From Parcubacteria group bacterium (GTDB lineage Bacteria > Patescibacteriota > Minisyncoccia > Phycocordibacterales > Zambryskibacteraceae), in NCBI GenBank assembly GCA_046597175.1, contig JBKJKY010000055.1, positions 1 to 37,640 on the forward strand: a stretch of DNA of 37,640 nt. The letters run 5' to 3'. Position 1 is the first letter of the stretch. The number at the start of each line of letters is the position of its first letter. Below, piece by piece: positions 6,075 through 30,528 of the stretch. Both the position numbers and the translations under genes were made by a program. Below the pieces are notes generated by a model. The model saw only the letters and a list, made by a program, of their open reading frames with translations, did not search any database and was not told the origin of the DNA.

Positions 6075-6091
6075 ATTATTTTTGTTAGTTA

Positions 6092-15715: not shown

Positions 15716-16003
15716 TTAAACTGTTTTAATGCCGTTAGAGTCAAACTGAATAAAGGTAGTTGTAGGACCGGTACTGATACTTGCAACGTAATAACTTCCT
15801 GCTACACCCGGAGCAAGAACGCTGAATGTCCCATCACCATTTGACTTCACTATTCCTGTCCCAAGTGTTCTTGGTACTTTGATAAATCCTCTTCCTGTCA
15901 TAGCCTGCTCAACTCTTAGAGGAAAAGAGAAAGAAGACTGCATAGCTGTGATAATTCCTTCAAGTTGCTCTACTCTCTGTGTTAGTTGTGATATTTCATC
16001 CAT
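15716..16003 (-). CDS. Small virion protein with N-terminal coiled coil
   Basis: MDEISQLTQRVEQLE..., 95 aa from ATG 16003. Confidence 0.55.
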   Translation of the reverse strand: MDEISQLTQRVEQLEGIITAMQSSFSFPLRVEQAMTGRGFIKVPRTLGTGIVKSNGDGTFSVLAPGVAGSYYVASISTGPTTTFIQFDSNGIKTV

Positions 16004-16004
16004 G

Positions 16005-16904
16005 TTAGTTTTCGTTTTGATTAGTCCATGTGCTACTTGCCTTACTTTGATTACCAAAAGAGGCTGTGTTCTTGTTAGAATTTGAATAAGAAGCAGAATT
16101 CCTGTTTTGTCTAAACCAACCACTTATGTCTAGTACGGTATCCCATCCAATAACTGAAAACTTGGTCACTTCTGTTACCAATGTAATGAGCCTACCCACA
16201 ACTGCTGCGTATCCAGTAAGTAGAAATATTCCAATAGAAGCAGTTATTGTGTATGCAGTAGTAAATGGATATTGAAAACCAGTACCTCCGTTATAGAGCA
16301 AAGTAACTTCCGCAGATGTAAGTTCTTTTGAATAATAAAAACATTCATCCATTGCACCCGCCATTCCTGTTCCAACAATATCGTTGCCAATTACAAAAGT
16401 TCCATTACCACCAAACGTTGGGGCCGATTGACTTGAAGTACCCACAGAAGAACCATTAAAATATACTGTTACCGTATTTGAACCATATGTAACAACAACA
16501 AAGTAATACGTTCCTACCGACATAGTAGGTGTGGTAACAGAGAAGTTGTAATAAGTACCACCAGCATTGCCATCGAAACGGAGTGAAGTTGAGCTCGTTA
16601 CCCGGATTTGGTAACTCATGAACGGGGTAGTGTTTGAAGTTGTATAGTTTTTTGAAAGAAGAATCTCGTTTGAAAGAGCGGCAGGCTTAAACCAACCACC
16701 AAAACTATACGTAGTTGACTCCATATTTGCGTTCCGAGCAACGACAATAGAGCTCGACGCATTATTTAATCCAGCTCCTTGAGTTATTTTTCCGTTACCA
16801 GAACTGTAAGTAATGCCCGTGTCAGTTCCATTATTTGAACCAACTGCGTCATTACTATTTCCTTCCAGCTTCCAATATGAAACTAAGTTGGTTACTAGTG
16901 CCAT
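16005..16904 (-). CDS. LamG/concanavalin A-like lectin domain virion protein
   Basis: LVSYWKLEGNSND, YYFVVVTY..TVYFNG, GAMDECFYYSKELTSAEVTLLYN. Confidence 0.85.
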   Translation of the reverse strand: MALVTNLVSYWKLEGNSNDAVGSNNGTDTGITYSSGNGKITQGAGLNNASSSIVVARNANMESTTYSFGGWFKPAALSNEILLSKNYTTSNTTPFMSYQIRVTSSTSLRFDGNAGGTYYNFSVTTPTMSVGTYYFVVVTYGSNTVTVYFNGSSVGTSSQSAPTFGGNGTFVIGNDIVGTGMAGAMDECFYYSKELTSAEVTLLYNGGTGFQYPFTTAYTITASIGIFLLTGYAAVVGRLITLVTEVTKFSVIGWDTVLDISGWFRQNRNSASYSNSNKNTASFGNQSKASSTWTNQNEN

Positions 16905-17315
16905 TTATGTAATTGACAGAAACCCATTAGAGTTATCAAAATCAATGAGAAACGTATCTCCTGGTTGAGAGAGCGTCAGAGCAGCTCCATAATCGTAATA
17001 CCCAATGAGTTCTTTGTTTGTGGCTGTGTCGTCGTATACATATATGTATCGAAAAGGCCCTACAGTACCAGAAGCGGTGAGGGTAAGATCGGCAAGAATA
17101 AGACGATAAAGCCCTGATGTTTGAGATGACGATGTGGTTGTTATGGTTCTTGAAGAACAGTTTGTATAGGAAATTTCTGTAAGGTCTGAGAGCTTTGTCC
17201 AACCTGCAGTGTGTGCGGTATTGGTTAGTGCAACCTTAAGACTATCAGAGCCAAGATTAAAGGTCTTTTCTGCTAAAAGTTCCACGAATGAATTGATTTT
17301 ATTGAATGTTGCCAT
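16905..17315 (-). CDS. Conserved small phage structural protein
   Basis: 136 aa; DSLKVALTN, GPFRYIYVYDDT, LIGYYDYG motifs. Confidence 0.7.
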   Translation of the reverse strand: MATFNKINSFVELLAEKTFNLGSDSLKVALTNTAHTAGWTKLSDLTEISYTNCSSRTITTTSSSQTSGLYRLILADLTLTASGTVGPFRYIYVYDDTATNKELIGYYDYGAALTLSQPGDTFLIDFDNSNGFLSIT

Positions 17316-18067
17316 TATCGGTATCGTTTAGGTCTAGCTCGTAATTGAATTTTCTCGTCCTTGTCTCTCATTGAGTAGTTGTCTTGCATGTCTTGTTCCA
17401 TCTGAGCGACTCGTTCTGCAAGTTGTTTTGCACTGTCCAAACTTTTATCAAGTGAATAGTCTCGGCACGCAATAAGAGCAACTAACTTGTGATAGAGCGA
17501 GTTAAATCCAGGCACTTTTGTAGTATCTGCGGTTGTGAAATATGAAGGTGGGCGTTGGAAGTACACCTTAAGTCCTGCGGAAGCGGTTACAGCACCTGCA
17601 AGAGGTTTTGGATAGAGGAATACTGAGTTTGCAAGCTTATCGTAATACTTCGGCATTCCTGCAACACTCAAGAAATCAGTAAGTGATTGGTCATATAAGT
17701 CCTTTTCTGAGAAAGGAATGAGTTTGTGCCATGCACCGGTTGAGTCTTTCACCTCTACACGAAGAACCTTTAGGTGAGTGACTGCAAAAGGATAATCTTG
17801 CTGTTCCGATCCTGCTGTTGTTACAAGGTTAGCAGTCGCGATAGGATAGTCAGTAAAATTTGTATCATCAAAAGCCCACCTTCCATCTGATTGGAGAATG
17901 AGTGAAGTTACTCTATCGAGTCCGTCATTAATACCTCTTGTGAAAGTGGCAAGAAGTCCTGCATCACTTGTAATACGGCCATAGCCATTATCTCCAAAGA
18001 GAGTATTCTCACAGATTTGAATAAGTCCAGCTTTTGACGCGGAGGTGTCGCTGAATTGATATGACAT
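17315..18067 (-). CDS. Head-tail adaptor protein
   Basis: 250 aa; GMPKYY..VFLYPKP, YHKLVALIA motifs typical of podovirus adaptors. Confidence 0.7.
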   Translation of the reverse strand: MSYQFSDTSASKAGLIQICENTLFGDNGYGRITSDAGLLATFTRGINDGLDRVTSLILQSDGRWAFDDTNFTDYPIATANLVTTAGSEQQDYPFAVTHLKVLRVEVKDSTGAWHKLIPFSEKDLYDQSLTDFLSVAGMPKYYDKLANSVFLYPKPLAGAVTASAGLKVYFQRPPSYFTTADTTKVPGFNSLYHKLVALIACRDYSLDKSLDSAKQLAERVAQMEQDMQDNYSMRDKDEKIQLRARPKRYR

Positions 18068-18093
18068 ACGCACACACTAACTGCGTGTATGTT

Positions 18094-19254
18094 TTATTCT
18101 GATTTAGGGTCACCAGAAATATCAGAAAGCATTTTGTTTATTGTTTCTGAGATATTACTGTCTTTGTATTGCCATTCTTTTGTTACTGCCTTTTTTGCGT
18201 TCTTTCCGAGTTGTTTCCTTAGTTTTTCATCGAGAATGAGCATCTCAAGCTTGTCAAACCATTCATTTGAGCGGGCTAGCATACCAGTGACACCGTCTTC
18301 AATGATCTTCTTACCCTTAATAGGCATAAAGTACGGATATACTCGTGATGCAAGTGTAGGAATTTCAAACATAGAATACTCCATCCACTTAATGTGAGAT
18401 TTACAGCGTGTAAACGGGGTATCCACGAGGGGTGCAAGTCCTACATCCCATGGTTGCTGTCCAAGCCATTCGGGAAGTTTCTTAAATATAGTTTCTGCTG
18501 GTCCCAGCCACACTCTTTTATCAAGAATCTCCTTAGAGAAGCCCATTTTGTCAAAATACCGGTGTACTTTGTCCTTTGATATGGTTCCAATGATGTTTAA
18601 GTGTACCTGTGGGTACTTTTTCATGATCTTAGCAATAGCTGGCATAACCATACGAAGATCATCTTCATGTGAAGTAGAGCCTGAGTACCCGATAACAAAC
18701 TTAGAGTCATCCTTTTGCGGTTTGACAGTTTGTTTCCAGAATTTTATATCGTTACAGTTCGGAACCACATAAATTGGCTTATCAATTCCGTGGAGAAGCT
18801 TAATATGCTGTGCGACTTTTTCTTTGAGAGGATACGTTGATACTGTAATAGCATCTGCGAGAGAAAGGACTGTCCCGAGCATTGCTCTGTCTCTCTTCCC
18901 TGGCTTGAAACGTTCATACAGGTCGTTGCTTTGGGGGATGTCGTAGTAGTTATCGTCTATGTCGATAATGACCTTCTTACCAAGTCTTTGAGCCCAATAG
19001 AACATAGCAGAAGCCACCTTTTCATCTGCAAAATACCCTGTCCAAAATACGTCGTATTGTTCAAAGACATCTTTCCACTGGTCGACAAGTGATGTACCAA
19101 AGTTTCCAATTTTCTTACCGATAATAGTAACTTCATGCCCGTCGATTTGCTGTGCAGGGGCAACAATTCGATAATATCCAAGTGGACCGAATGTGTCAAG
19201 CTTTCTACGCTCTGGTGTGTAATCGTAATCTGAGTAGTGTGCAAGTATTTTCAT
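18094..19254 (-). CDS. Glycosyltransferase, GT-B fold (GT4-like)
   Basis: YYRI..P, IDIDD, IGYSGSTSHEDDL, DVGLAPL..F.RCKS.IKWMEYS. Confidence 0.88.
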   Translation of the reverse strand: MKILAHYSDYDYTPERRKLDTFGPLGYYRIVAPAQQIDGHEVTIIGKKIGNFGTSLVDQWKDVFEQYDVFWTGYFADEKVASAMFYWAQRLGKKVIIDIDDNYYDIPQSNDLYERFKPGKRDRAMLGTVLSLADAITVSTYPLKEKVAQHIKLLHGIDKPIYVVPNCNDIKFWKQTVKPQKDDSKFVIGYSGSTSHEDDLRMVMPAIAKIMKKYPQVHLNIIGTISKDKVHRYFDKMGFSKEILDKRVWLGPAETIFKKLPEWLGQQPWDVGLAPLVDTPFTRCKSHIKWMEYSMFEIPTLASRVYPYFMPIKGKKIIEDGVTGMLARSNEWFDKLEMLILDEKLRKQLGKNAKKAVTKEWQYKDSNISETINKMLSDISGDPKSE

Positions 19255-19931
19255 TATATTTGATGATTATGTAAAACTATTTCTGCTATTCCTGGTCGTA
19301 TACCATTTGTGCCGGCTGAGTAGAAGAATTCTGGTACTTGATTAAATGGCAAGCCAACTTTGTCTATGGCATACATGAATGAGATTTGGTCTCGTCTTGA
19401 ATGTCTACAAAATTCACTCCACCATGCATCTTCAAAAGCTTTTACTTGAGGAGTATTTCTTCGAAAGATTATTCCGCACTCACTCAGTCCTTTATGTTTG
19501 GCGTATCCTGAGTCTTCGTACATTTTGGCTTGTTCTATGATAGTTTCAATATCATCAAGTCCCCTCTTTGCACATGTGATAGCCTCGTCATAGGTACAAT
19601 CTCGAGTCGGATGTTTATAGACAGCTAAATCGTACTCACCTAAATACTTATCAATAAGTTCTTTTGGAGTACAGAGAAGTTTAATATTTCCATCTAAATA
19701 GATTGAATACTCAGTACCAACATATTGATGTGAAAGAATTTTTTGTATGCGGGAGTTTCTGCGAGGGTCAATAAACTTGTTATATGAAGGCTTCATCTCC
19801 CATGTTGATGAAACAATCGGTTTATCAACGTAAGCTACAAACTTTGCTCCATCTTTTATAGACTCCATTTCTCGGAGTCTGTCCTTGTCTCCCGTTATGG
19901 AGGTGAATACTGTTATATTAGATGATTCCAT
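19254..19931 (-). CDS. Glycosyltransferase, DUF616/TOD1-MUCI70-like
   Basis: VFTSITG, SIYLDGN, HPTRDCTYDEA, RRDQISF. Confidence 0.85.
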   Translation of the reverse strand: MESSNITVFTSITGDKDRLREMESIKDGAKFVAYVDKPIVSSTWEMKPSYNKFIDPRRNSRIQKILSHQYVGTEYSIYLDGNIKLLCTPKELIDKYLGEYDLAVYKHPTRDCTYDEAITCAKRGLDDIETIIEQAKMYEDSGYAKHKGLSECGIIFRRNTPQVKAFEDAWWSEFCRHSRRDQISFMYAIDKVGLPFNQVPEFFYSAGTNGIRPGIAEIVLHNHQI

Positions 19932-20709
19932 TTTCGTGTAGCCAAGCTAATCCTGCGTCTTCGTATTGAGTATTCGAACCGTGAGTTCTTGAGATGTATC
20001 CTCTCTCCCCTTCAATGCAGTATGCAGAGACTCGATACGCAGGAGAGAGCATTGCAGTCTTGAGTCCGTGCTTTTCAATGAGTTGATTGAGAGGATACAC
20101 AATGTTATTCCAGTCATAGAGGGCTTCGAGACTTTCTGGATTGTCAGTCTTTCCTTCTCTTGTTAGTTCTACAGTGGAAAGGTCAAACTTACCTCCCATA
20201 AGCCTTAAAACTTTAGGCTTAAAGAATTCAAAAGAACCACGAATTGATCCGTATGGCATCCCCGAAGAATTTGTAAGAATGTCCCACTTCTTGAAATTAG
20301 GGTCTTCAATTTGGTCAATAATAGCTCTATCGTGAATGATTAAGTTATCATCGTGGGTGAATAGAAATAGGTCGTAATCTTTGTAGTTGTTTTCGTCTAA
20401 CCATTGATTAGAGTTCCCCCAGTCGCCCACTGTATTTGGGTATTCTTTGTAACTCCATCCAAGTTCTTTGATAAGCCACTCAGAAGCAATTTCTTTGTAG
20501 AGATGTTTATCAAGTTTACCTCGCAAGTCATCTTTGAATATGTCGTTCTTTTTTTCTTCCTTTGCAATATCAGGATTTCTATGTGACACGCAAAAGAACT
20601 CTACTTCCCATCCCTCTGGTCTTACCTGTCGGACCATAGCTTCATAAAATGAGCTTGGATAATGCCAACCGGATGCCACCACTGCAAGTTTTTTAGTTTT
20701 CTTCTTCAT
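19918..20709 (-). CDS. Putative GT-A fold glycosyltransferase
   Basis: YDLFLFTHDDN DxD-like motif after N-terminal beta strand LAVVASGWH; cluster context. Confidence 0.6.
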   Translation of the reverse strand: MKKKTKKLAVVASGWHYPSSFYEAMVRQVRPEGWEVEFFCVSHRNPDIAKEEKKNDIFKDDLRGKLDKHLYKEIASEWLIKELGWSYKEYPNTVGDWGNSNQWLDENNYKDYDLFLFTHDDNLIIHDRAIIDQIEDPNFKKWDILTNSSGMPYGSIRGSFEFFKPKVLRLMGGKFDLSTVELTREGKTDNPESLEALYDWNNIVYPLNQLIEKHGLKTAMLSPAYRVSAYCIEGERGYISRTHGSNTQYEDAGLAWLHENGII

Positions 20710-20719
20710 TTAGTTGGAC

Positions 20720-20947
20720 TTACACTAATAATTTTTTAATATATTCTTCTGCCTCTTTCTCTAATTCTTTTAATATGTTTTTGTTTGATTGACGCCAGTT
20801 GCCGTGAGTTTTTCCATTGTGGATAAAATGCCAATGACAAGTAAAGAATTGATCCAAAGGATTTTCCGATATTTTTGGTTTTTGTAATTTGAAGATTACC
20901 TGCATCCCATCTATGTTTACTATGTGCTGTGCGGTTTCATCGGTCAT
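20720..20947 (-). CDS. Hypothetical protein in glycan cluster
   Basis: 75 aa from ATG 20947. Confidence 0.55.
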   Translation of the reverse strand: MTDETAQHIVNIDGMQVIFKLQKPKISENPLDQFFTCHWHFIHNGKTHGNWRQSNKNILKELEKEAEEYIKKLLV

Positions 20948-20954
20948 AGCTTTT

Positions 20955-21491
20955 TCATACAAGCTTTGAAATGCTAGGGAATTTACTATTAATAACCTCA
21001 TATCTGACCCCACATGAGCCCATTGGAGGTTTGTTGTACTTTGTCATCCATCCGACCTTATCTCTTTCAAGACTTCCACCCTCAAAGAGAACAATTCCGT
21101 CGATATTTTTGGTCTTCTCTCTTAAATCAAAGATAGTTTTGCCATCATTTGAAATATCAACGTGCATGAGGTCAAATGGTTCTGGTATCCATCCCTTAAA
21201 GTCTCCCTGTGCAAGTGTTACGAACCCACTGAGGCCGAGCTGGTCAATCATTTCCTGTACGTTTGCCTTACTTCCGTGTTTGTATTGGTAGGTATCCCAC
21301 AAGTCGTAAGATGTTATGTGACCTTCTCCAAGTTCATGGAGTGCCATAGCAATAGCAACGGTGGAATATCCATGAAGTGTGCCAAATTCAATGACCTTCT
21401 TAGGTTTTGCTTTCATTACAGCATCATACAGCGTCTCACCAAGGTCATTTTCTCTATATGAACTGTTTATTTGAGGATTTTTATATTTCAT
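20955..21491 (-). CDS. Class I SAM-dependent methyltransferase
   Basis: VIEFGTLHGYS motif I, SYD, FDLMHVD; ATGA overlap. Confidence 0.85.
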   Translation of the reverse strand: MKYKNPQINSSYRENDLGETLYDAVMKAKPKKVIEFGTLHGYSTVAIAMALHELGEGHITSYDLWDTYQYKHGSKANVQEMIDQLGLSGFVTLAQGDFKGWIPEPFDLMHVDISNDGKTIFDLREKTKNIDGIVLFEGGSLERDKVGWMTKYNKPPMGSCGVRYEVINSKFPSISKLV

Positions 21492-22054
21492 TTCTTGTAT
21501 ATAAAACAAATAGATGGATAAAAGTGTATAGATGTAATACCGAGAGTGTTTGGTTCCATAATTGTCCCTTCAAGTCGTTGGTTGTTAGCATCTTCATGAA
21601 GTGTGTCCGTTAGTTCTTTTAGGTAGTCTGTGGTTTTTACATTCGAGTCCAAGAAATCTGGCCAGAAAGATGTGTGCAAGTCTTCAATAACGTATAATCC
21701 TCCTTTGTTCAGTTTTGGAAAAAGTGTTTTGAATGCAACTTGTTGCTGGTTCATGGTATGTCCCCCGTCATCTATGACAATATCGAACGAACCGAGAGAG
21801 TTGAGTAGACTTATGTCTGTCTGATCACCAATAACTACAGCGATTCCATTTCCTTCATATTGTTTACAGCTTGGTAAAATGTCTAATCCTGTAATCTGTG
21901 CATCTGGGAGTAATTCTTTCCACAGTAGGAGTGAATCTCCACCTTGAACACCGATTTCTAAGAGTGAAATGTTGTTGTTATAGTATTGGGAAAGATGATC
22001 GCTATAGGCTTGCAAGAAACCTGTTGTTTTGTGTGCTTTATTAGGACTAGGCAT
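21488..22054 (-). CDS. Class I SAM-dependent methyltransferase, sugar O-methyltransferase (MycE-like) type
   Basis: LLEIGVQGGDSL, GDQTD, DIVIDDGGH, GGLYVIEDLHTS. Confidence 0.85.
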   Translation of the reverse strand: MPSPNKAHKTTGFLQAYSDHLSQYYNNNISLLEIGVQGGDSLLLWKELLPDAQITGLDILPSCKQYEGNGIAVVIGDQTDISLLNSLGSFDIVIDDGGHTMNQQQVAFKTLFPKLNKGGLYVIEDLHTSFWPDFLDSNVKTTDYLKELTDTLHEDANNQRLEGTIMEPNTLGITSIHFYPSICFIYKK

Positions 22055-23024
22055 ACATTGCTTTCTTTGCTTCTCTAATAGTTACGTCATGATGAAACGG
22101 AAGGAGTCTCCAATTGTCTTCAACTTCGTCCATAATCGGACAATCATTTTTGAATTGTTTGAATACGGTGTACTTATCGTTTCGGTAATGATGTTGTTCA
22201 CCTTTAGCCCACCATTGGATACAAAGCCAGTTATGGCAACTAATACCAGGAATGGAATTGTAGAAATCTTGCAACTTCTTTCTTTTAGCCATCATCTTGT
22301 CAAAGGCTTTGAGATTACCAAGTCCTATTGAGGCGGTAATGTCACTCATGTGGTACTTGTATCCTGCTTCTTTGATGTCAGTGTCGCCTTTCTTTTGTTT
22401 CTCTTCACGGTCATAGCCAAACCACCTCAGTCTTTTTGCTTTTTCGTAGTTTTTCTTTGATTTGGTAATAAGGAAACCCCCATCTCCACTAGTAAGAGTT
22501 TTGATTGCTTGGAGTGAGACAGCGGTAAAGTCACCTTTACCCCAATAGTTCGAACCAACTGCCTGGGCTGCGTCTTCGATAAGAATAATATTTCGCTCTC
22601 TACATAATTGAGCGATTTCAGGCAGGCCTCTGTTATTTCCTCCAAAGTGAACAAAGACAATGGCTTTTGTTTTTTTGGTAATTTTCTTTTTGACATCTTC
22701 AATGTGTATATTTAAGTCGTAGTCTATATCTGCAAACACAATCTTTGCCTTGCGTCTTACAAGAGGAAGATTAGTGGCAGTACAGGTGAGCACAGGAGTA
22801 ATAACCTCGTTACCCTCGTTGATACCTGCGAGCTCGTATGCCAACTCCAGAGCTGAAGTCCCACTGTTGAGAGCGACCACATTATTAAGATTAAACTTTT
22901 TAGCAAATTCATTTTCAAATTTTTTAACGAGTGGTCCCTCTGCTAATTGTCCAGAACGTAGGACCTTAATTACGTTCCATATTGCGTACCAAGACACATA
23001 AGGTTTAAATAGTTTTACAGCCAT
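22047..23024 (-). CDS. DegT/DnrJ/EryC1/StrS PLP-dependent NDP-sugar aminotransferase
   Basis: NSGTSALELA, IEDAAQA, SLQAIKTLTSGDGG (PLP lysine), GYKYHMSD. Confidence 0.93.
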   Translation of the reverse strand: MAVKLFKPYVSWYAIWNVIKVLRSGQLAEGPLVKKFENEFAKKFNLNNVVALNSGTSALELAYELAGINEGNEVITPVLTCTATNLPLVRRKAKIVFADIDYDLNIHIEDVKKKITKKTKAIVFVHFGGNNRGLPEIAQLCRERNIILIEDAAQAVGSNYWGKGDFTAVSLQAIKTLTSGDGGFLITKSKKNYEKAKRLRWFGYDREEKQKKGDTDIKEAGYKYHMSDITASIGLGNLKAFDKMMAKRKKLQDFYNSIPGISCHNWLCIQWWAKGEQHHYRNDKYTVFKQFKNDCPIMDEVEDNWRLLPFHHDVTIREAKKAMYA

Positions 23025-24025
23025 GTTTTGTTATTGAGAGTCCATCCAATGCACTTAATAAGAGAGTCTATAAATGTAAGGGGTGCTTTCCATCCTTTTT
23101 CTTTGAGCTTAGTCCCATCAAGAGCATAGCGATAGTCATGTCCCGGACGTGTCGAGTGATGGTCTACAAGTTCATACTTCAGTTCTTTACAGAGAACATT
23201 TGAAATGATTTCTGCAACTTCTAGATTATTTAGTTCTACATCTCCGACAATGTTGTATCTATCTGGTACGAGTGTTTCGTCTTGCACATAAGGAGTAGCA
23301 GGGAGATTATTCATGATGTAGAGAACAGCATCAGCCATGTTTCGAGCGTGGAGGTAGTACCTCGAGCCAATCTTCCCTTCCTTACCATGCACCGGGACAA
23401 TTTCGCCATTTTCTACACAGCGAATTACTTTAGCCATAAACTTTTCTCCGTCTTGTGTCTCTCCAAAGAGATTCATGGTGTTTGTAATGACTACGGGTAC
23501 GCCATATGTTCTCCAATATGAGATTGCAATAGCTTCTTGGCATGCTTTCGAAGCAGAGTATGGATTACTTGGAATGATTGGAGCCCACTCTGGGTGATTT
23601 ACTCCAAAAGGTGCTACTCCATACACTTCGTCAGTAGAGAACTGAAGAAATAGTTTTGGTTTGTACTCTCTTGCAAACTCAAGCATGTTAAGAGCAAGGT
23701 CTACATTGTTTTTTACAAAAGGAACAGGGTCAGTGATTGAACGGTCAACATGTGACTCTGATGCCACGTTTAAAATGTAGTCGCATACTCCAATTCTTTG
23801 TTTTGTTCGCTCTGGGATTGGTGCGATAAGGTCATGGGTGATGATGGTCACTCTATCTCTCCATGTTTTATCTCCCTTTAATACCTCTTCGATTCTCTCC
23901 GGTGTTCCTTTATGAGTCCACGATGCAATTCCTACGATGTCATAGTCAGTGTTTACAAGGAGGTGTTCCAATATATGGCTTCCTGCAAATCCACTTATCC
24001 CCGTCAGTAGTACTTTAGTCTTCAT
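23015..24025 (-). CDS. rmlB: dTDP/NDP-glucose 4,6-dehydratase
   Basis: GISGFAG, ASESHVDRSI, STDEVYG, PYSASKA, RPGHDYRYALD. Confidence 0.92.
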   Translation of the reverse strand: MKTKVLLTGISGFAGSHILEHLLVNTDYDIVGIASWTHKGTPERIEEVLKGDKTWRDRVTIITHDLIAPIPERTKQRIGVCDYILNVASESHVDRSITDPVPFVKNNVDLALNMLEFAREYKPKLFLQFSTDEVYGVAPFGVNHPEWAPIIPSNPYSASKACQEAIAISYWRTYGVPVVITNTMNLFGETQDGEKFMAKVIRCVENGEIVPVHGKEGKIGSRYYLHARNMADAVLYIMNNLPATPYVQDETLVPDRYNIVGDVELNNLEVAEIISNVLCKELKYELVDHHSTRPGHDYRYALDGTKLKEKGWKAPLTFIDSLIKCIGWTLNNKTWL

Positions 24026-24305
24026 AGAGTGCTTTAGTTTCTGGGTTATTGAATGATTTTATAAAGCCGTGTAGTCTGTCGGTGATTTCCGAGACAGTCC
24101 ACATACGAGCAGACATTCCGTTTGGAAATTCATATCGATAGCTAGAGTCAAATTCTTCTCGAATATCGTCAGCTACAACTGGCAAGTCGTAATTCTTCCC
24201 TTCGTAAAATATGTTATTGAGTCCTGGTCTATTTGGGTTTTCTACGATGGTAAATTTTGGATCTATTTCAGTTTGAATTTTTGTTTCTAATTCTTTGTTA
24301 GTCAT
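24015..24305 (-). CDS. Hypothetical protein
   Basis: 96 aa ORF overlapping both neighbours. Confidence 0.7.
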   Translation of the reverse strand: MTNKELETKIQTEIDPKFTIVENPNRPGLNNIFYEGKNYDLPVVADDIREEFDSSYRYEFPNGMSARMWTVSEITDRLHGFIKSFNNPETKALYED

Positions 24306-24543
24306 TGAGTTTTTCTACAGCTTCTAAGGTTTCAATAGCATTTTGAAATAGGAGAAAGGTTGCAGAAGCAATACCTTGAACAGACTTTGAAGTAAGTTCA
24401 ACTTTTTGTCCGTAAAACTTTCCATCCTTTTCAAATGTATAACCAAGAAGCCCATTACGAAATAATAGGTTTATTTCCACATCTTTAAAATTAAATAAAG
24501 AAATGGTTTCTAGTGCAGGTTTTGTTTTTTTAGTAGTTTTCAT
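24298..24543 (-). CDS. Hypothetical protein
   Basis: 81 aa from ATG 24543. Confidence 0.65.
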   Translation of the reverse strand: MKTTKKTKPALETISLFNFKDVEINLLFRNGLLGYTFEKDGKFYGQKVELTSKSVQGIASATFLLFQNAIETLEAVEKLND

Positions 24544-24561
24544 GATTGTGATTGTTTCCAA

Positions 24562-24605
24562 ATTGTCTTGCCCTAACCAATTTGGATAGAAAGGGCAAGA
24601 ACAAT
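24562..24605 (-). other. Stem-loop after major capsid gene, without a U tract
   Basis: ATTGT-TCTTGCCCT ... AGGGCAAGA-CAAT inverted repeat. Confidence 0.7.
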
Positions 24606-24611
24606 CGTCGG

Positions 24612-25589
24612 TTATCCTGTTGAGAAACCGTCAGATGCACCAGTTTTGAGGTTGATGATCCATGTTGAGTTAAGAGTCTTAACTGCAAAAGGCATCTTCC
24701 ATCCAACTGTTGAGAACTGCTCAAGTGGGTTATCGGTAGAGTTTGGTCCTGGGTTCTTAACAAACACCATTGGTGCGTTGTGTGAACCGAGGTTTACAAT
24801 AGCGTAAGCATGAGCACCGAAGAGGAAGTTTGAGTAAACGTTTGCAACGTTTGTCGCTGAGGTAGAGAATCCACCTGTGAGCGTAAAGTGTTGGTTATTA
24901 GTTTCTACAAACTCTACTCCATGGAGCTTTCCTACGACACCTCTCTCGATAGCGTCAGAAGTGGTGTAACGGTGTGCGTCAAGCCATTCTGCGTTACCCA
25001 TGAGGTCCATAGCGGTATCTGGTCCAATAATTCCACGGTAGAGACCACCTGGGAATCGCTGTGCCTTGTTCTTCTTGAGTGCACGAACTGCACGTCGAAT
25101 TTCAAGACCAGTAAGTGAGTCAGAAGTGTGGATTGTTGAGATAGCTGTGGTGTTTCCAGTTGCTCCTGCGGTTGTGGTAGAAGAAAGCAAGTTTGTTGCT
25201 CCTGTTACCAATTCTGCACGGATAAGCTGGTCGATTGATTCACCTGCGTTCTGGCCGTGTACTGAAACGTGCTCTGTTAGACCATCCTCAATAGAAGTCA
25301 TTGAGTAGAGTGATCCAACCTGAGTCCAGTTTCCGTAATCTGCGAGCGTAGTTGATACGTTTGCAGCGGTCATGTCTACAGATGAAGGGTTTGTGGCTTC
25401 AGAAAGTGAAGTTGTTACAATAGTAAGAGGTGTAAATCGTGTAAATACGATTGACTTACCCATGTTCATAGGAATGTTTTTAACATCCGCACCGAAATCA
25501 TGTCTAAGTTCAACCTTTGCACGCTCTAGGAACGTCTTGTCGTACCATAACTGCATCGCTGCTGATAAGCCGGTTGTTGATGAGGACAT
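24612..25589 (-). CDS. Major capsid protein, N4-gp56 family (HK97 fold)
   Basis: YDKTFLERA, GKSIVFTRF, LSEATNP, GVVGKLHGVEFVET, DNPLEQFSTVGWK. Confidence 0.92.
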   Translation of the reverse strand: MSSSTTGLSAAMQLWYDKTFLERAKVELRHDFGADVKNIPMNMGKSIVFTRFTPLTIVTTSLSEATNPSSVDMTAANVSTTLADYGNWTQVGSLYSMTSIEDGLTEHVSVHGQNAGESIDQLIRAELVTGATNLLSSTTTAGATGNTTAISTIHTSDSLTGLEIRRAVRALKKNKAQRFPGGLYRGIIGPDTAMDLMGNAEWLDAHRYTTSDAIERGVVGKLHGVEFVETNNQHFTLTGGFSTSATNVANVYSNFLFGAHAYAIVNLGSHNAPMVFVKNPGPNSTDNPLEQFSTVGWKMPFAVKTLNSTWIINLKTGASDGFSTG

Positions 25590-25657
25590 ATTAGTTGTTT
25601 AACTAATACCGCCTCAGTTGTGAAAGAGCTACTAACTGATAATGCGAATAAAATCTT

Positions 25658-26137
25658 TTACGCGTGAGGCAGTATTTTTGCCAACTCCTCTCGAGACATT
25701 TCTTTAAGTTGTTGTGGTGTATATTTTCTTTCTACTTCTGATAGACCTGAAGCGTCACTAGTCTTACTTCCTGCGTCTTCTGCTTGCCTCTGCTCTTTGG
25801 CAGATTTTATAGCAAGGGAAACGAGTGAATTAGGGTCTTTGAGTGCTTCACGGCCACCATTAGCAGTAATGAACGCTACTTCATTTCTGGAGTAACCTTC
25901 ACGAATATAGTCCGCAACTTCCCAAAGTTGGTCATCGAGCTTGGGAGCTGGCTTATTTTCTGCTGGTAAGTTGTCAAGGTTCTGTGATTTTGCTTTGAGA
26001 GCTTTCAATTCTGCTTCTGCTTTCTTAGCTCGGGCAAACAGTTTCTTTTCAGATTCTGAAGGTCCGGTAGGATTAGATTCATCACCTAAGTCCAAGTCGA
26101 GATTTAAAGAGTCCTCGTTCTCAATATTGTCTTCCAT
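25658..26137 (-). CDS. Probable scaffolding protein
   Basis: Acidic N-terminus, KLFARAKKAEAELK coil, C-terminal MSREEL; directly upstream of capsid gene. Confidence 0.65.
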   Translation of the reverse strand: MEDNIENEDSLNLDLDLGDESNPTGPSESEKKLFARAKKAEAELKALKAKSQNLDNLPAENKPAPKLDDQLWEVADYIREGYSRNEVAFITANGGREALKDPNSLVSLAIKSAKEQRQAEDAGSKTSDASGLSEVERKYTPQQLKEMSREELAKILPHA

Positions 26138-26222
26138 ATAAGCTATGTAAGTTGTTTAAAGGGTTGTCTCCCATGAGCTGTGCTTTTTAAAAGAGGTGGC
26201 TATGCTCTAAGCCCTCAGATTC

Positions 26223-26447
26223 TTACTTTCCTGCGTCTTCGAAACCGTCATCTACACCATAGTGTGGTAGTCCTGGTACTGCGTAGTCGGGGATTTTCTG
26301 TCCTGTTCGCATTGTTCCTGAGTCTTGGTCCTTGATTGGCTCGATAGTCTGTCCATCTGACCAATTAGGGCTTCCACCTGCGACTACAACGTCTGGTAAT
26401 ACTTTCGCTCGATTCTCGTCTGGTAATGCTGGTTCGTAATTATTCAT
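26223..26447 (-). CDS. Hypothetical protein
   Basis: 74 aa from ATG 26447 (MNNYEPALPD...). Confidence 0.6.
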   Translation of the reverse strand: MNNYEPALPDENRAKVLPDVVVAGGSPNWSDGQTIEPIKDQDSGTMRTGQKIPDYAVPGLPHYGVDDGFEDAGK

Positions 26448-26748
26448 ATTGGTTTCGTCCCTTTTCTGGGATGTCTTGATTAATTTCTGGGTAACAAGCT
26501 GACTCTCGGTGTTCTTCTGAAGCGGTAGTGTTGAGGTATGGCTTATTTGTCTGGTAATTTCCTGTAGCCGTAAGAGTTCCTGAAGTGTGATATGGTTGCC
26601 CAACCTTTCCTGCTGTGTCTTTTGTATTGAGCGGAGCTTTTTCGATGAAGTCTGGCAATGTACTTATGTCAAAGGGTTTGTCATGATTTCCTACAAATGA
26701 GGTTTTCTCATAATTTTGTCCGACAACGTGATAATCTTTGTAATCCAT
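26440..26748 (-). CDS. Hypothetical protein
   Basis: 102 aa ORF in head operon. Confidence 0.6.
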   Translation of the reverse strand: MDYKDYHVVGQNYEKTSFVGNHDKPFDISTLPDFIEKAPLNTKDTAGKVGQPYHTSGTLTATGNYQTNKPYLNTTASEEHRESACYPEINQDIPEKGRNQYE

Positions 26749-26750
26749 GG

Positions 26751-27008
26751 TTATATAAATTTACTTTTAATTGGTCTTTGAAGTCTTCGCACAATCTTGT
26801 TATCTCTTATGAACTTGTCGATTGATTCATATGCGAGATTCCTTCCTATGATTTCTGCTTTGACGTGTTCTGCTGGTTGCGTAGTATCAACTGAATTCAT
26901 GTCTTTCAGTGGTTCGATATAGTCTAATAGGAGTTGTTCCATGTGTACCCAATCTGGGTCACTAAAGAATTTATCTTGCAATATTTTGATATTCTGTGGC
27001 TCTACCAT
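26751..27008 (-). CDS. Small helical protein downstream of portal
   Basis: 85 aa; FFSDPDW motif; synteny. Confidence 0.65.
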   Translation of the reverse strand: MVEPQNIKILQDKFFSDPDWVHMEQLLLDYIEPLKDMNSVDTTQPAEHVKAEIIGRNLAYESIDKFIRDNKIVRRLQRPIKSKFI

Positions 27009-27012: not shown

Positions 27013-28857
27013 TTATTTAGCTGTTGGTTCAGTTGGAGGAACTACAGAAGGGACACCACTTTCTGGCTTATTTGCAGGGAGTCCAAGAGCCTCTGGGTTG
27101 CTCTGCACAATGTCTCCACGCTGTTGGTCCGCAAGCTCTACTTCACCTCTCGAGATACCAAGTGCATCTGCCATCTTGTAGTACATAACTTTATAGATAG
27201 GGTCACTCATAGCTTGAGGATTGTACTGAGCAAGGAGAGACTGAATATTAGTAGCGAGTGTTTGAGGATTAATCTGTTCATTACCGATATTGAAGTCAAA
27301 TTCAAACTCTGCATCATCGTAGAATTGCTGTTTGATCTTAATGAAACGACTATCACCCATTGAGCGGTATGTCTTGATAGCTTTCTTCTTAAGTTCGTCT
27401 TGGAGTTCAAGTGTTACTTGGTGACCATCGAGTACCATTCTCTTGATTTCGTCGTTTGCGTATACTTCCGAAGCCGCCTCGTCAAGCTTTTGGAGCTCTT
27501 GTGATGATCCGGTAAACCTCATGATGTGCTCTGGTGTAAGGTTTGCCATAAGGTTCGGCATTACCAAGTCATTGAAGAAGTCACGAAGCATATTTGTGTA
27601 GTTTTCACGTTTGAAACCGAACGTAGAAGAGGCTTGCTGTTGAGCGTTTATCGTAGCTGTTGCAGTAGTTGAGGCTGCGGAAGCTTGACCAGATACAGCG
27701 TCATAGGCAAATGAGAGACGTTGTGACTGTTGAATGTAACTTTGCTCTTCACTATCAAATGCGGGTAGGTTTCTTTCCTCAATAGCGATAGGCTCAATCC
27801 CATTAGGAGATAGAAGGATGTCTCCACTTTCAAGGTCTGTGAGAATGTTTCGAACAATCTGCTTATCTTTTGTTTGCAAAAGGTGCATAGAAGAGAGTTC
27901 CATTGAGATTCTCTTTTGGTTTTTGATTTCATTGATACGGACCTGAACATCGAAAAGAGATTCTGTGATTCCATAACCAAGCCATCGTCCACGGATTTTG
28001 TTGTAGTGGTAGTCCTTGAAGGGATATTGCTTCTTATGCCATGCAGATTTGAAGAGGATTACTCCCATTTCTCCAATATTCTTTCCGTCTGCTGATTTCT
28101 GAGATACATCAATACCACACACAATAAAGAGGGCTTTTACGAGCTTTTTCCCTTCTTTTGTGAGTGGATTTAGTTTTTCATCAAGCCAACACGCAGGGAC
28201 TTCTCCGTATCGCTTATATACTTTGATATACGGAGTGGATTTGATTTGGTTAATACTTCCATCACGGTCCTCGTAGGCGGGATTACCGAGATTAGTTGCA
28301 AAACGTTCTACTGCTACATCTACGTTGTCCCATCCAGTCTCAAGGAGCTCTGAAGGAGTCATGTAGTGAACCGTGGTAATGAACCGAGAGTCGTTTATGC
28401 TCTCTACAGTAGGGTCAAGGATGAGCTTTCGAAGGTCTACAATCTTTGCACCGTCTTTTGTCTTTTCGAGCACAACTGAGCCCATCTTAGGGGCTTCGTC
28501 TGCAATTTGATTGAGGAGATTGGCAGACTTCGAAGTCTTAAGCCATTGTTTCATCTCCTTCTCAAGAAGGTAGGTAGAAAAGTATGATTTAGGATTTTGC
28601 GGTAGAAGTCGTATGTCTTTTGTATCGACATTGAGCATCTTTGTAGCCACTTCACACGCAGGCACAGTGATATTGAAAAAGAGTTTTTCTCGGTTGAGAT
28701 AGAGGTCAGAAGCATCCTCAAACTTAGAATTGAGAGTGAGATGGATTCTCTTGATTGTGTAATACTGGCTATACGAATAGCCCGGTACTACGGTTATATA
28801 TTGAGTGAAGAAGTCGGTCTTCTCTTGGCGAATTTGAGAGTATATATTCTGTTCCAC
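27013..28857 (-). CDS. Portal protein
   Basis: 614 aa after terminase; GRWLGYGITESL, TATA-type stem motif, Q-rich C-terminus; GTG start. Confidence 0.85.
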   Translation of the reverse strand: MEQNIYSQIRQEKTDFFTQYITVVPGYSYSQYYTIKRIHLTLNSKFEDASDLYLNREKLFFNITVPACEVATKMLNVDTKDIRLLPQNPKSYFSTYLLEKEMKQWLKTSKSANLLNQIADEAPKMGSVVLEKTKDGAKIVDLRKLILDPTVESINDSRFITTVHYMTPSELLETGWDNVDVAVERFATNLGNPAYEDRDGSINQIKSTPYIKVYKRYGEVPACWLDEKLNPLTKEGKKLVKALFIVCGIDVSQKSADGKNIGEMGVILFKSAWHKKQYPFKDYHYNKIRGRWLGYGITESLFDVQVRINEIKNQKRISMELSSMHLLQTKDKQIVRNILTDLESGDILLSPNGIEPIAIEERNLPAFDSEEQSYIQQSQRLSFAYDAVSGQASAASTTATATINAQQQASSTFGFKRENYTNMLRDFFNDLVMPNLMANLTPEHIMRFTGSSQELQKLDEAASEVYANDEIKRMVLDGHQVTLELQDELKKKAIKTYRSMGDSRFIKIKQQFYDDAEFEFDFNIGNEQINPQTLATNIQSLLAQYNPQAMSDPIYKVMYYKMADALGISRGEVELADQQRGDIVQSNPEALGLPANKPESGVPSVVPPTEPTAK

Positions 28858-28903: not shown

Positions 28904-29266
28904 CTACACTATTGATTCAGAAGTTTTTGAGTTCCCACTTTTCATGTGACGGAGTAGCTCATCGATAATAGGTTTTTCATAGTTTTTAAATATTTCAGTT
29001 GAAATGGTTACAGTTCCCTTTTGAAGTAATTTATAGGAAATAAGGTAAACCTCCTGTCTAAATATCCATCTTTGAATAGTCTTCTTCATCAGTTTCTTGC
29101 CACAGCATATATTTAGATATTCTTGAAGCTCTGGAACGGTGTATTCAAGGAGCTTGTAGCGTCTCCATATTTCTGGCCATGTTTTTGTATCTACCTTATA
29201 TTCAACTGCAAAGCGTAGGCTAGGGTCTACAGTAAATAGTTCTGATTTGTCTAAGTGAATTATCAT
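28904..29266 (-). CDS. Hypothetical protein, possible helix-turn-helix
   Basis: 120 aa; YTVPELQEYL...LMKKTIQRWI pattern. Confidence 0.6.
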   Translation of the reverse strand: MIIHLDKSELFTVDPSLRFAVEYKVDTKTWPEIWRRYKLLEYTVPELQEYLNICCGKKLMKKTIQRWIFRQEVYLISYKLLQKGTVTISTEIFKNYEKPIIDELLRHMKSGNSKTSESIV

Positions 29267-30528
29267 TTATAGTTTCTATTTTTGTTTCTATTTTCGTACA
29301 CATGACTGAGCATGAACGTATCAACTCTAACCTTATCTTTTACTCCCCACACTGAGAGGGCTAGAGACATCACTCTATCGTCGTGCATCCCGTCTGGGAC
29401 TTTAACCTTAATCTTTCCACCTTCTGAGAGTGTGTATTGAAACGCCTCAAGTTCCGTAATAAGTCCTTCGTCATCAGGTATCTTGATTTTGTCCTGTTCA
29501 AGTAAGATTGAGAGATTACTAAGGAGATTCATTCGAGAAACTTCTGTAAACTTGAAACCTTCTCCGTTTTCCCCTCCGATTCGAAGTCCTCGGGCTTTTA
29601 AGTCCTCAACTATCGGGTCCCCTACTCCCGTAGCGTCTGGCCATATAAGAGCGTCTTGGAAGCGTCTCGCACATGCTTCTACCCTAGCCTTCTGTAAGTT
29701 CCAATCTACTTGCTGGAAACGTTCTTGAGGGTATGCAATGAAATGGTTCAGGTTGAAAGGCGTGAGTACTGTCCAGTCTTGATACTTGGCAAGGTCCACT
29801 CCGAGTTGAAATTCTCCTGTTTCTGGTAGGATTCTCGTCGCGTCGTAAGTGTTTTGGTGTATGCGTCGAAAGAACTGTGAAGCACCTTCCAAGAACTCGC
29901 AGAGATACTCTTGCTCATAGAGAGCCATCGGCGTATTTCGTTTAATCTCATCTAATTCAGAGTCAGTGAATATATTTGTATCCTTTATTGACTTAACTGA
30001 GACATACCATTCTTCTGTGTTGTCTCTTGCCATCTGTACTAACTTCCATGAGTGGTTTTTTCCCTTAGGGGTAAAGATAAAGGTTGCAGTTCCTTTGTTT
30101 TCTCGCAAAATAGGCTGAATGATAGCGGTCCACATTTGCTCACTAATTTCAGAGTATTCATCAAATACAACATCAATAGGATTTATTCCTCGGTGTTTAT
30201 CTACATCCTCACACCCCGCAAACCTTTGAATAGAGCCGTTTTTGTAATAGACAGCTAATTCTGAGTCGTTAATCTTCTCTACTATTTCCTTCGGTATATG
30301 TTTCTTTATAAGGTCATCCCATATAACTGATTTAGCCTGGCGATAAGTTGGAAGAAAGTAATAATAAATTCCCTTTTTCAGTTGTGTCTTTCTGATCTGC
30401 TCATTGAGGGCAGTCATAGACTTTCCACCACGACGGTGAACGACGAATATCTTAAAACGCTGGGGAGCCTTTAGAAAATCAAGCTGATAGTCTCTTGGTT
30501 TATACAGGTGGGGTATCGTTATCTGCAT
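29263..30528 (-). CDS. terL: Terminase large subunit
   Basis: PRDYQ, HRRGGKS (Walker A), VVFDEYS (Walker B), FTPKG, GVDLAKYQD, HDDRVMSLAL. Confidence 0.96.
   Translation of the reverse strand: MQITIPHLYKPRDYQLDFLKAPQRFKIFVVHRRGGKSMTALNEQIRKTQLKKGIYYYFLPTYRQAKSVIWDDLIKKHIPKEIVEKINDSELAVYYKNGSIQRFAGCEDVDKHRGINPIDVVFDEYSEISEQMWTAIIQPILRENKGTATFIFTPKGKNHSWKLVQMARDNTEEWYVSVKSIKDTNIFTDSELDEIKRNTPMALYEQEYLCEFLEGASQFFRRIHQNTYDATRILPETGEFQLGVDLAKYQDWTVLTPFNLNHFIAYPQERFQQVDWNLQKARVEACARRFQDALIWPDATGVGDPIVEDLKARGLRIGGENGEGFKFTEVSRMNLLSNLSILLEQDKIKIPDDEGLITELEAFQYTLSEGGKIKVKVPDGMHDDRVMSLALSVWGVKDKVRVDTFMLSHVYENRNKNRNYK

Follow-up and report, generated by a model that had tools for sequence, protein, structure and literature searches.

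A block of eight open reading frames (ORFs) on the minus strand encodes a sugar 4,6-dehydratase, an aminotransferase, two methyltransferases, three glycosyltransferases (GTs) and one short product in the window, by which we mean the whole stretch of 37,640 bases that was analyzed. The window is one of the 91 contigs (contig C59) of a 0.83-Mb, 77% complete genome bin of a Parcubacteria group bacterium. Since its first and last 117 bases are identical (1-117 = 37524-37640), forming an exact direct terminal repeat, we take it to be the complete genome of a ~37.5 kb podophage, either circularly assembled or terminally redundant. The eight ORFs exactly fill their 5932 nt, 15.8% of the 37,523-bp unit genome, in agreement with a sequence-only reading that had described eight tightly packed, same-strand genes covering 5.9 kb (~16%) and had taken them for a candidate virion glycosylation system. 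On the evidence below, we give roughly an even chance to the locus being a phage-autonomous module, expressed late, whose enzymes glycosylate proteins of the virion.

Genes and enzymes of the locus

The junctions inside the cluster consist of overlaps of 10, 8, 22, 59, 14 and 1 nt plus a single 10-nt gap. The dehydratase gene, the first of the cluster, shares 11 nt with the small ORF before it, and the GT4 gene, the last, stops 20 nt short of the adaptor gene. All long ORFs of the window lie on the minus strand, in the order small terminase, large terminase, portal, capsid, two small ORFs, the eight cluster ORFs, adaptor, ConA/LamG protein and large tail proteins (Table 1), and the window reads well under translation table 11. 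The earlier placement of the cluster between the capsid and head-tail adaptor genes stands, with the correction that two conserved small ORFs, sA and sB, intervene on the capsid side. None of the seven terminator-like sites in 16000-27000 is on the minus strand. A megablast search with 24.6 kb of the window returned no match in a phage collection, which hence holds no near relative, and a search of sequencing runs listed no RNA run containing the stretch and one DNA run that contains it, from which it may derive.

Profile matches, motifs and Foldseek searches with AlphaFold2 (AF2) models bear out the families that had been read from the sequence, namely an RmlB-type dehydratase, a DegT aminotransferase, two methyltransferases and GT-A-like, DUF616 and GT4-like transferases. 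The dehydratase matches the Pfam families GDP_Man_Dehyd (152 bits) and Epimerase (144 bits), and its 'GISGFAG' (the GxxGxxG NAD site), 'STDE' and 'YSASK' motifs line up with those of PDB entries 6bi4 and 8du1. Its ten best PDB matches are all dTDP-glucose 4,6-dehydratases (top match 6bi4, E 2e-41), suggesting dTDP-glucose as the substrate. With 203 bits on TIGR01181, below the equivalog cut-off of 365.1, it is best classed as a divergent relative and not as an RmlB equivalog. The aminotransferase scores 232.3 bits on PF01041 (DegT_DnrJ_EryC1; cut-off 19.8) and is closest to structures of the sugar 4-aminotransferase type, with 4zwv/4xau at 1e-38 and CalS13 among its best PDB matches. The lysine of its 'QAIKTLT' motif, aligned with 'QALKHLT' of 4zwv, is the pyridoxal phosphate (PLP) lysine. 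Its C-terminal domain is short, covering profile positions 10-253 of 360 in a protein of 325 aa vs 372-404 aa in the best PDB matches, and the short form recurs in two relatives (L017 and L018, 326 aa each). Because Pfam and NCBIfam scans of the cluster proteins revealed no 3,4-ketoisomerase in the window, C4 is the most likely site of amination.

Methyltransferase MT1 matches Methyltransf_24 (28.4 bits) and phrog_21658, and its PDB matches, a demethylmacrocin O-methyltransferase among them, include the catalytic domain of MycE (3ssm, E 2.9e-23) and 8ia9 (E 8e-18). Passages of PMC10117803 describe two metal-binding aspartates and a catalytic histidine in MycE, and the 'DDGGH' and 'VIEDL' motifs of MT1 align with 'DDGSH' and 'VIEDM' of MycE such that the catalytic D, H and D are retained. 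MT1 lacks the N-terminal tetramerization domain of MycE, being 188 aa long compared with a MycE chain of 419 aa. The second methyltransferase, MT2, matches Methyltransf_24 (43.2 bits), Methyltransf_3 (22.4 bits) and PDB entry 7cvu (E 0.004), and is weakly similar, judging from these profiles, to O-methyltransferase family 3. The 97-aa ORF downstream of MT2, counted among the eight genes by the sequence-only reading, was rejected as a member of the system because it has neither a family match in Pfam, NCBIfam or PHROGs nor a homologue in 78 related loci at E<1e-5 (best E 0.036; singleton cluster c62). It is doubtful as a gene, and leaving it out creates a 245-nt spacer between the MT2 and GT-A genes.

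The GT-A-fold protein had no match in Pfam, NCBIfam, PHROG or a sequence search of the PDB, nor by tblastn in the phage collection, and profiles built from the GT-A and DUF616 alignments matched nothing in the PDB at E up to 10. Its AF2 model (predicted local distance difference test, pLDDT, 88.6) has a strand at residues 114-119 leading into an invariant, DXD-like H119-D120-D121-N122, and Foldseek aligned the model with RmlT, TarP, SpsA and WrtF in the PDB (E ~1e-6, template modelling score, TM, 0.44-0.49) and with GT-A proteins of giant viruses and phages in BFVD. With these moderate TM values and no sequence family, the predicted structure places the protein at the level of the fold only. 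Its nearest clusters in the ESM Atlas are unnamed and 95-100% viral, which is a lead only; the protein belongs to a virus-restricted, unnamed family. The DUF616 protein is a putative glycosyltransferase by family membership, scoring 79.8 bits on PF04765 (TOD1_MUCI70, formerly DUF616; cut-off 21.4) over profile positions 138-290 of 314 and matching phrog_26101. The GT4 protein exceeds the cut-off for Glycos_transf_1 (PF00534, 32 vs 26.4 bits), and its AF2 model (pLDDT 93.7) has the two Rossmann domains of a GT-B fold. Foldseek matched it to 6eji, GlgM, MshA, BshA, HepE, SdgB, TarM and GtfA (E 1e-15 to 1e-12), with TM 0.57-0.69 to MshA, BshA, GlgM, HepE and SdgB, a set that spans small-molecule-, polysaccharide- and protein-directed enzymes. 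The alignments of all three transferases contain invariant acidic, His and Gly columns. Taken together, the motifs and the confident models indicate that the dehydratase, the aminotransferase, MT1 and the transferases are real and look active.

The cluster proteins are soluble by the measure used here, with no membrane segment in any of the eight (top Kyte-Doolittle mean over 19 residues <=1.27). Pfam and PHROG scans covered 48 proteins of the window (8 + 10 + 10 + 20, from partly overlapping lists, with ORFs under ~100 aa mostly left out), and among these we found no membrane anchor, flippase, GtrAB-like gene or base hydroxymethylase, as had been noted from the sequence. The same holds for the earlier observation that a nucleotidyltransferase is missing, as Pfam and NCBIfam detect none among the eight cluster proteins.

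Table 1. Positions of the sugar-pathway cluster and of neighboring genes in the window.
Feature	Position	Strand	Remarks
Cluster of eight ORFs	18094-24025	minus	exactly filled; 5932 nt
Small terminase		minus	GP3_package match
Large terminase	29263-30528	minus	
Portal	27013-28857	minus	
Major capsid protein	24612-25589	minus	
sA, small conserved ORF	24298-24561	minus	87 aa; no Pfam or PHROG match
sB, small conserved ORF	24015-24305	minus	96 aa; no Pfam or PHROG match
NDP-hexose 4,6-dehydratase, RmlB-like	23015-24025	minus	336 aa; NDP, nucleoside diphosphate
DegT/DnrJ/EryC1-family PLP sugar aminotransferase	22047-23024	minus	325 aa
SAM methyltransferase MT1	21488-22054	minus	188 aa; MycE/TylE-like; SAM, S-adenosylmethionine
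SAM methyltransferase MT2	20955-21509	minus	184 aa; class I
Orphan ORF	20720-21013	minus	97 aa; GTG start
GT-A-fold glycosyltransferase	19918-20709	minus	263 aa
TOD1_MUCI70 (DUF616) glycosyltransferase-like protein	19254-19931	minus	225 aa
GT4-family glycosyltransferase	18094-19254	minus	386 aa; GT-B, retaining-type
Head-tail adaptor, SU10-type	17315-18073	minus	
ConA/LamG-type lectin-fold protein	16005-16904	minus	Laminin_G_3, 78 bits

A fixed slot with exchangeable contents

A capsid-based scan of IMG/VR yielded 78 loci at 45-84% identity, with complete contigs mostly of 36-41 kb. Capsid and adaptor genes were both present on the fetched DNA in 44 genomes (43 loci and the window; 40 distinct capsids, 45-100% identity), for which gene occupancies were obtained by a greedy choice of ORFs and are minima. 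A GT4 gene lies between capsid and adaptor, directly upstream of the adaptor, in 44/44 genomes, as an intact ORF in 43 of them; the copy in L063 is broken by seven TGA codons. The capsid-adaptor interval spans 1.6 to 9.1 kb, and its other contents are less regular, with an aminotransferase in 38 genomes, a DUF616 protein in 33, a dehydratase in 29 and a GT-A protein in 19. The smallest loci (L067, L075, L076 and L077) hold only the capsid gene, one or two small ORFs, GT4 and the adaptor gene.

To guard against capsid-based selection, we also surveyed IMG/VR starting from GT4 (79 loci, from the best 80 of 159 matches). A capsid gene was present upstream on the same strand in 52/52 loci with at least 9.5 kb of upstream sequence, and an adaptor gene downstream in 60/64 loci with at least 1.5 kb of downstream sequence, the four misses being the most divergent loci. 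A survey of the position next to the capsid gene had been proposed from the sequence alone, together with the notion that random positions, or occurrence mainly as host loci, would speak against a virion role; neither was seen for the phage copies. Because the arrangement recurs in every related genome examined, it is more than a product of chance. Further afield, in the GenBank podovirus MW202801 (from a spring), with 24% identity to the window in the capsid and 24.5% in GT4, the capsid gene is followed by a hypothetical gene, by genes for an Fe-S oxidoreductase, a transferase, a PhyH dioxygenase, a methyltransferase and a NodB-like protein, then by the GT4 homologue and the tail genes. The outgroup Bacillus phage Pony has just three small genes between capsid and tail.

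The genes of the slot differ in how closely they follow the capsid. Pairwise identity in GT4 correlates with pairwise identity in the capsid at a Spearman coefficient of 0.83, compared with 0.68 for the portal, 0.68 for the adaptor, 0.67 for DUF616, 0.58 for GT-A, 0.40 for the aminotransferase and 0.21 for the dehydratase, figures that are descriptive as the pairs are not independent. GT4 thus behaves as a core gene of the structural module, being universal and vertically inherited like the structural genes. Swaps in the remainder are plain in individual genomes: in the L004 group, whose capsid is 82% identical, the dehydratase is absent and the aminotransferase only 41% identical, and L018 combines a capsid of 70% identity with an aminotransferase of 79%. 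Cassettes in other relatives contain a cytidylyltransferase-like protein, a sugar C-methyltransferase, a cupin, a Methyltransf_11 protein and a UDP-glucose-dehydrogenase-like protein, as well as two kinds of HNH homing endonuclease and the family-less proteins c7, c10 and c19. The swaps and the identity correlations together define a locus whose sugar-pathway middle varies between conserved flanks, formed by sA/sB at one end and by DUF616, GT4 and the adaptor at the other. The HNH genes (AP2+HNH_3 and NUMOD3+HNH) lie inside the cassettes, for example at L050:14306-14770 and L041:5256-5753, with cluster c15 in 6/44 and cluster c17 in 4/44 genomes; their products may promote cassette exchange.

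Candidate acceptors of the proposed glycan

From the enzyme families we infer the following route, in which the carrier nucleotide, the regiochemistry, the sequence of transfers and most of all the acceptor are inferred. NDP-glucose made elsewhere would be converted by the RmlB-like 4,6-dehydratase to an NDP-4-keto-6-deoxyhexose, which the DegT enzyme would aminate, most likely at C4, to give a viosamine- or 4-amino-fucose-type sugar. The three soluble transferases would then assemble a glycan on a cytoplasmic acceptor, with GT4 as the conserved core enzyme and DUF616 and GT-A as extending, more variable enzymes, and MT1 (MycE-like) and MT2 would methylate sugar residues. The likeliest acceptor would be a co-produced virion protein, with the capsid, through its Ser/Thr-rich surface loop and C-terminal tail, as the leading candidate, and the particle would exit the cell bearing a methylated amino-sugar glycan.

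A virion acceptor is favored because the module is embedded in the late operon that runs from head to neck genes, where its strand carries no terminator-like site, because its core enzyme GT4 is universal and inherited vertically like the structural genes, because export machinery is absent from the cluster, and because there are precedents in Mimivirus fibrils, mycobacteriophage capsids and tail tubes, and a gene pair in the head module of Cellulophaga phages. Host-directed accessory genes are usually patchy in their distribution.

Among the PDB matches of the window dehydratase is 6vlo, titled 'Putative dTDP-D-glucose 4,6-dehydratase', which we take to be a Mimivirus enzyme. The route to viosamine through a dehydratase and a DegT-type enzyme, to which the window had been likened from its sequence, has a matching enzyme set in the passages on Mimivirus of PMC10117803, where the fibril cluster comprises the dehydratase R141, the aminotransferase L136, the MycE-like methyltransferase R132, L142 and the transferases L137-L140, and the product is 2-O-methyl-N-acetyl-viosamine on the fibrils of the particle surface. 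Both clusters, going by these passages, combine a 4,6-dehydratase, a PLP aminotransferase, a MycE-like class I SAM methyltransferase and several glycosyltransferases, and MT1 and R132 are both best modelled on MycE. The two differ in that Mimivirus is a giant eukaryotic virus and not a 37.5 kb podophage, that the window has no N-acetyltransferase or pyruvyltransferase, that the carrier in Mimivirus is described in the same passages as UDP whereas the window enzymes best match dTDP-type ones, and that the acceptor is known in Mimivirus but deduced for the window.

The earlier appeal to mycobacteriophages finds agreement in passages of PMC12363180 and PMC11256854, according to which Che8, Corndog and Myrna modify capsid and tail-tube proteins with their own glycosyltransferases. 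The Corndog transferase gp38 sits inside the head-gene module, between portal-side genes and the capsid protease, so that, as in the window, a phage-encoded transferase lies in or beside the structural genes. Unlike the window phage, these are siphophages and myophages of Actinobacteria; for this comparison we note that the window encodes its own dehydratase and aminotransferase. Glycans of Che8 are reportedly located at protein C-termini. The window module would be analogous to the Mimivirus and mycobacteriophage systems, without detectable homology to the Corndog genes.

In the Cellulophaga phages phi12:1 and phi18:1 (Helsingorvirus), a Methyltransf_24-type gene (gp39) lies beside a DUF616-type transferase (gp40/gp41) in the head-morphogenesis module. 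The transferase is 26% identical to that of the window (E 6e-10) and, in passages of PMC11946311, is described as conserved across the genus. These are siphophages of Bacteroidota, their genes lie between head-morphogenesis and protease genes whereas those of the window follow the capsid gene, and they have no sugar-nucleotide genes or GT4. As a side observation, gp39 of phi12:1 (L141, NC_021791, 7534-9206) carries the name 'DNA methyltransferase' on account of PF13578 (Methyltransf_24); this label may be wrong, since the protein belongs to the same family as the sugar-type methyltransferases of the window and abuts the DUF616-type transferase. Among cellular systems, a viosamine island of Pseudomonas syringae is described in passages of PMC10117803 as producing and methylating viosamine and transferring it to flagellin, and O-antigen and capsule loci resemble the window locus in having a variable sugar-pathway cassette within conserved flanks.

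The annotated major head proteins of the Bacillus phages Pony and Page share 32% identity with the capsid along 98% of its length (E 1e-44); the Phage_capsid_2 score of the capsid is slightly below the cut-off (24.7 vs 25 bits), and the SU10_adaptor score of the adaptor is well above (42.3 vs 27 bits). Serine and threonine make up 21.5% of the capsid protein. Its loop around residues 128-160 is variable and rich in Ser/Thr, and a short C-terminal tail follows the 'KTGAS' motif. In phages with large cassettes (dehydratase, aminotransferase, GT-A and DUF616) the Ser/Thr-rich loop of the capsid is longer (Ser+Thr 0.42-0.52) and the protein has a C-terminal tail, and in the GT4-only phages L067, L075 and L077 the loop is shorter (Ser+Thr 0.20-0.24); L067 and L075 end at 'GATA', and L077 has a longer tail, 'ASSVGTNS'. 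Of the two small ORFs, a homologue of sA follows the capsid gene directly and is present in 35/44 genomes, and sB is present in 39/44 and retained in most of the minimal loci (capsid-sB-GT4-adaptor). We dropped sB as the leading candidate for the glycan acceptor, as its alignment has no invariant column, and thus no invariant Ser/Thr, and no Ser/Thr-rich tract. A predicted complex of GT4 with sB scored 0.00 (mark 0.32), which counts neither for nor against an interaction.

Several findings weigh against a virion acceptor. Of the earlier proposal that a methylated amino-sugar glycan is put on the particle, the pathway logic and the capsid-side position hold up, and it is from gene position only that a virion target would follow. 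The folds do not favor a protein acceptor, since GT-A is nearest to RmlT and TarP and the GT4 matches include enzymes directed at small molecules, polysaccharides and proteins alike. GT4 relatives occur in 58 cellular loci (<=38% identity), with a weak capsid match in 1/58 and a dehydratase nearby in 15/58, and these cellular family members probably serve cell-surface glycans. Passages of an analysis of Patescibacteriota phages (PMC12911398) take phage genes of the rmlB and gmd types as auxiliary genes acting on the host surface. The trend in the capsid has exceptions, namely L070, with a large cassette, a short loop and no tail, L063, with DUF616 and GT4 and no tail, and the GT4-only L077, which retains a tail; the association of loop and tail with the cassette also tracks phylogeny and is suggestive only, a pointer to where to look. 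Since GT4-only phages usually lack the tail, that tail is not the acceptor of GT4 if GT4 has one acceptor clade-wide. A tblastn search with 21 window proteins against the 15-40 kb region of Corndog, which holds its glycosylation genes, gave no match at E<0.01. The source of the donor is likewise unexplained, as the phage appears from its gene content to have no nucleotidyltransferase. The sequence-only reading had the host supply NDP-glucose; for the bin this is unsupported and the host assignment is weak, with the NTP_transferase family PF00483 found in 0/3 genomes of the bin's genus (the bin and two others, 94% and 99% complete), 8/21 relatives and 14/14 controls. The lineage of the bin often seems to lack the usual sugar-1-phosphate nucleotidyltransferases, and no homologue of any cluster enzyme was found elsewhere in the bin.

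The enzymes might instead remodel the host envelope by working, at its cytoplasmic face, on precursors (lipid-linked or polymeric) of a wall glycan, a teichoic-acid-like polymer or an S-layer glycan, so that the receptor is altered late in infection and progeny loss on debris is prevented or competitors are excluded; a related version is an 'auxiliary metabolic' modification of the surface. We consider this rather unlikely, though still a serious competitor of the virion reading. Its support begins with the structures, as RmlT and TarP, the nearest folds to the GT-A model, are wall-teichoic-acid glycosylating enzymes and TarM is among the GT4 matches, and membrane segments are not needed for such a role, since GT4 and GT2 enzymes commonly use lipid-linked acceptors without having their own. 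The cellular GT4 relatives near sugar dehydratases stand apart from phage structural genes, and a Saccharibacteria-labelled contig (L086) carries DUF616, GT4 and dehydratase relatives together. The variability of the cassette recalls O-antigen and capsule loci, the published view of Patescibacteriota phages is of the same kind, and the authors of passages on Cellulophaga phi18:1 propose lipopolysaccharide or DNA modification for its transferase (PMC11946311). What a host-directed role leaves aside is that the cluster has no flippase, polymerase, ligase, Gtr-like or other membrane protein (no Gtr, Wzx or Wzy family match in the eight proteins), in which it differs from O-antigen and GtrABC systems, and that GT4 occurs throughout and diverges along with the capsid (rho 0.83) in a slot fixed between capsid and adaptor (44/44 and 52/52 loci), which is unusual for host-directed accessory genes. 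Seroconversion loci also differ in position, as the window locus lies in a lytic-type structural operon and not in a moron position. The search for an integrase found just a 136-aa ORF with a sub-threshold SAM-like N-terminal match, so lysogenic conversion is unlikely, and since homologues of the cluster enzymes are absent elsewhere in the bin, no host pathway for them to plug into is evident there.

The glycan could also be attached to something else in the cytoplasm (a non-structural protein of the phage, a protein of the host or a small molecule), for example to disable a factor in defence or sensing, in which case the slot in the head module would reflect the timing of expression only. All enzymes being soluble, the small-molecule enzymes MshA, BshA and GlgM among the structural neighbors of GT4, and the finding of nothing that ties the enzymes physically to a virion protein are compatible with this. 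Yet an elaborate, diversifying glycan built with three transferases, two methyltransferases and swapped pathways better suits an exposed surface, and a slot in the late operon fits poorly with counter-defence, which is usually early; we regard such a target as improbable.

Last, the sugars could be placed on modified bases of the phage DNA to protect it from restriction. DNA-glycosylating transferases are well known from T-even phages, and a 106-aa protein of the window (528-848, minus strand) that matches the N-terminal domain of a dATP/dGTP diphosphohydrolase (PF18909, 57.9 bits) hints at manipulation of the nucleotide pool. This family is known from phages that replace a base, and scanning of the window proteins turned up no PurZ-like partner. 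In the 48 proteins scanned there was also no match to a dCMP/dUMP hydroxymethylase or to thymidylate-synthase-like, deazaguanine or PurZ-type families. Moreover, the cluster lies in the structural operon away from replication genes, and three transferases together with deoxysugar-type O-methyltransferases are foreign to known DNA-sugar systems, making DNA hypermodification highly improbable.

Host lineage, significance and further genes of the window

The composition of the window is among the less typical in the bin (tetranucleotide r 0.88; GC 40.4% vs 43.8%). The bin has further phage-like contigs, namely C35 (37 kb, 52% GC), C88 (41 kb, 51% GC, with a large-terminase homologue) and C6 (13 kb). 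C6 is a fragment of a related phage, with DNA 67% identical to window positions 4420-6262 and a tail-fibre C-terminal domain that is 70% identical in protein; the window has no other DNA match in the bin, and no spacer-like short match to it was found. Because of these contigs, the size of the bin (0.83 Mb vs 0.5-0.7 Mb for complete genomes of the family) is inflated by viral DNA; genomes of its order are 0.5-1.0 Mb at ~100% completeness. Capsid relatives occur in only 2/300 other genomes of the order, both weak, and binning is weak evidence for the host of the window.

A second pointer to the host is the genetic code of a relative. The frame of the GT4 gene of L063 (14395-15516) contains TGA seven times, at glycine-like positions, and is uninterrupted in NCBI table 25; reading through TGA lifts the long-ORF coverage of the locus from 0.48 to 0.78. 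Since these codons are read as glycine, at least one member of the clade, L063, uses the Gracilibacteria/SR1 code; L056 (coverage 0.65 to 0.95) may also use a code with TGA read-through. GT4 relatives are found on contigs labelled Nanosyncoccus and Gracilibacteria. The lineage of the bin, the code of L063 and these labels suggest that the clade infects ultra-small, Patescibacteria-type bacteria. An actinobacterial host was considered and is not supported, as WhiB was not found in the bin.

Giant viruses and, as has been known since 2023, a few actinobacteriophages glycosylate their particles with genes of their own, a trait that has been treated as an oddity. The enzyme superfamilies of the window (RmlB-like SDR, DegT, MycE-like methyltransferase, GT4, GT-A fold and DUF616) are already known; new here are a self-contained amino-sugar pathway in a 37.5 kb podophage, a fixed capsid-adaptor slot across a large uncultured clade, a GT4 core with a swappable cassette, and an unnamed virus-restricted GT-A family. 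Within the literature searched, we found no paper on this clade or on its cassette as virion glycosylation, and supplementary lists (e.g. Data S6 of PMC12911398) may catalogue instances. A small podophage devotes 16% of its genome to the cluster, and the slot is filled in every relative examined, with contents that vary like a serotype locus. More broadly, and tentatively, we propose a widespread clade of ~36-41 kb environmental podophages, at least some of which would infect ultra-small, code-25 or Patescibacteria-type bacteria, in which the universal GT4 would prime a virion protein and a cassette swapped by recombination, sometimes with homing endonucleases, would set a strain-specific exotic sugar (amino-, C-methyl-, O-methyl- or cytidylyl-activated). 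The locus would then be a viral counterpart of the O-antigen locus that gives each lineage its particle glycan, with possible uses in sticking to, or hiding from, the surfaces where the tiny episymbiotic hosts live.

If the target is the virion, coats of glycan would be common and evolvable on the particles of environmental phages, the listing of sugar genes as 'auxiliary metabolic genes' of the host surface, also in Patescibacteriota phages, would have to be reconsidered, and the conserved flanks would provide a simple marker for such loci. The system can be tested directly, as it comprises seven small soluble proteins and one capsid protein, and the clade is a lead on the phages of ultra-small bacteria, which are hardly known.

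Outside the cluster, the lectin-fold protein of the tail module, two genes past the adaptor, is a likely receptor-binding protein; passages of PMC12911398 tally ConA/LamG-type domains as 'auxiliary' genes. The sole sizeable plus-strand ORF of the window (9512-10105, 197 aa, ATG start) lies in a gap between minus-strand tail genes and has no Pfam match. In the structural region, a 733-aa protein (10247-12448, minus strand) shows sub-threshold matches to DUF3990 and to the ADP-ribosyltransferase domain of polyvalent proteins at residues ~571-640, and possibly carries an enzyme domain that is ejected.

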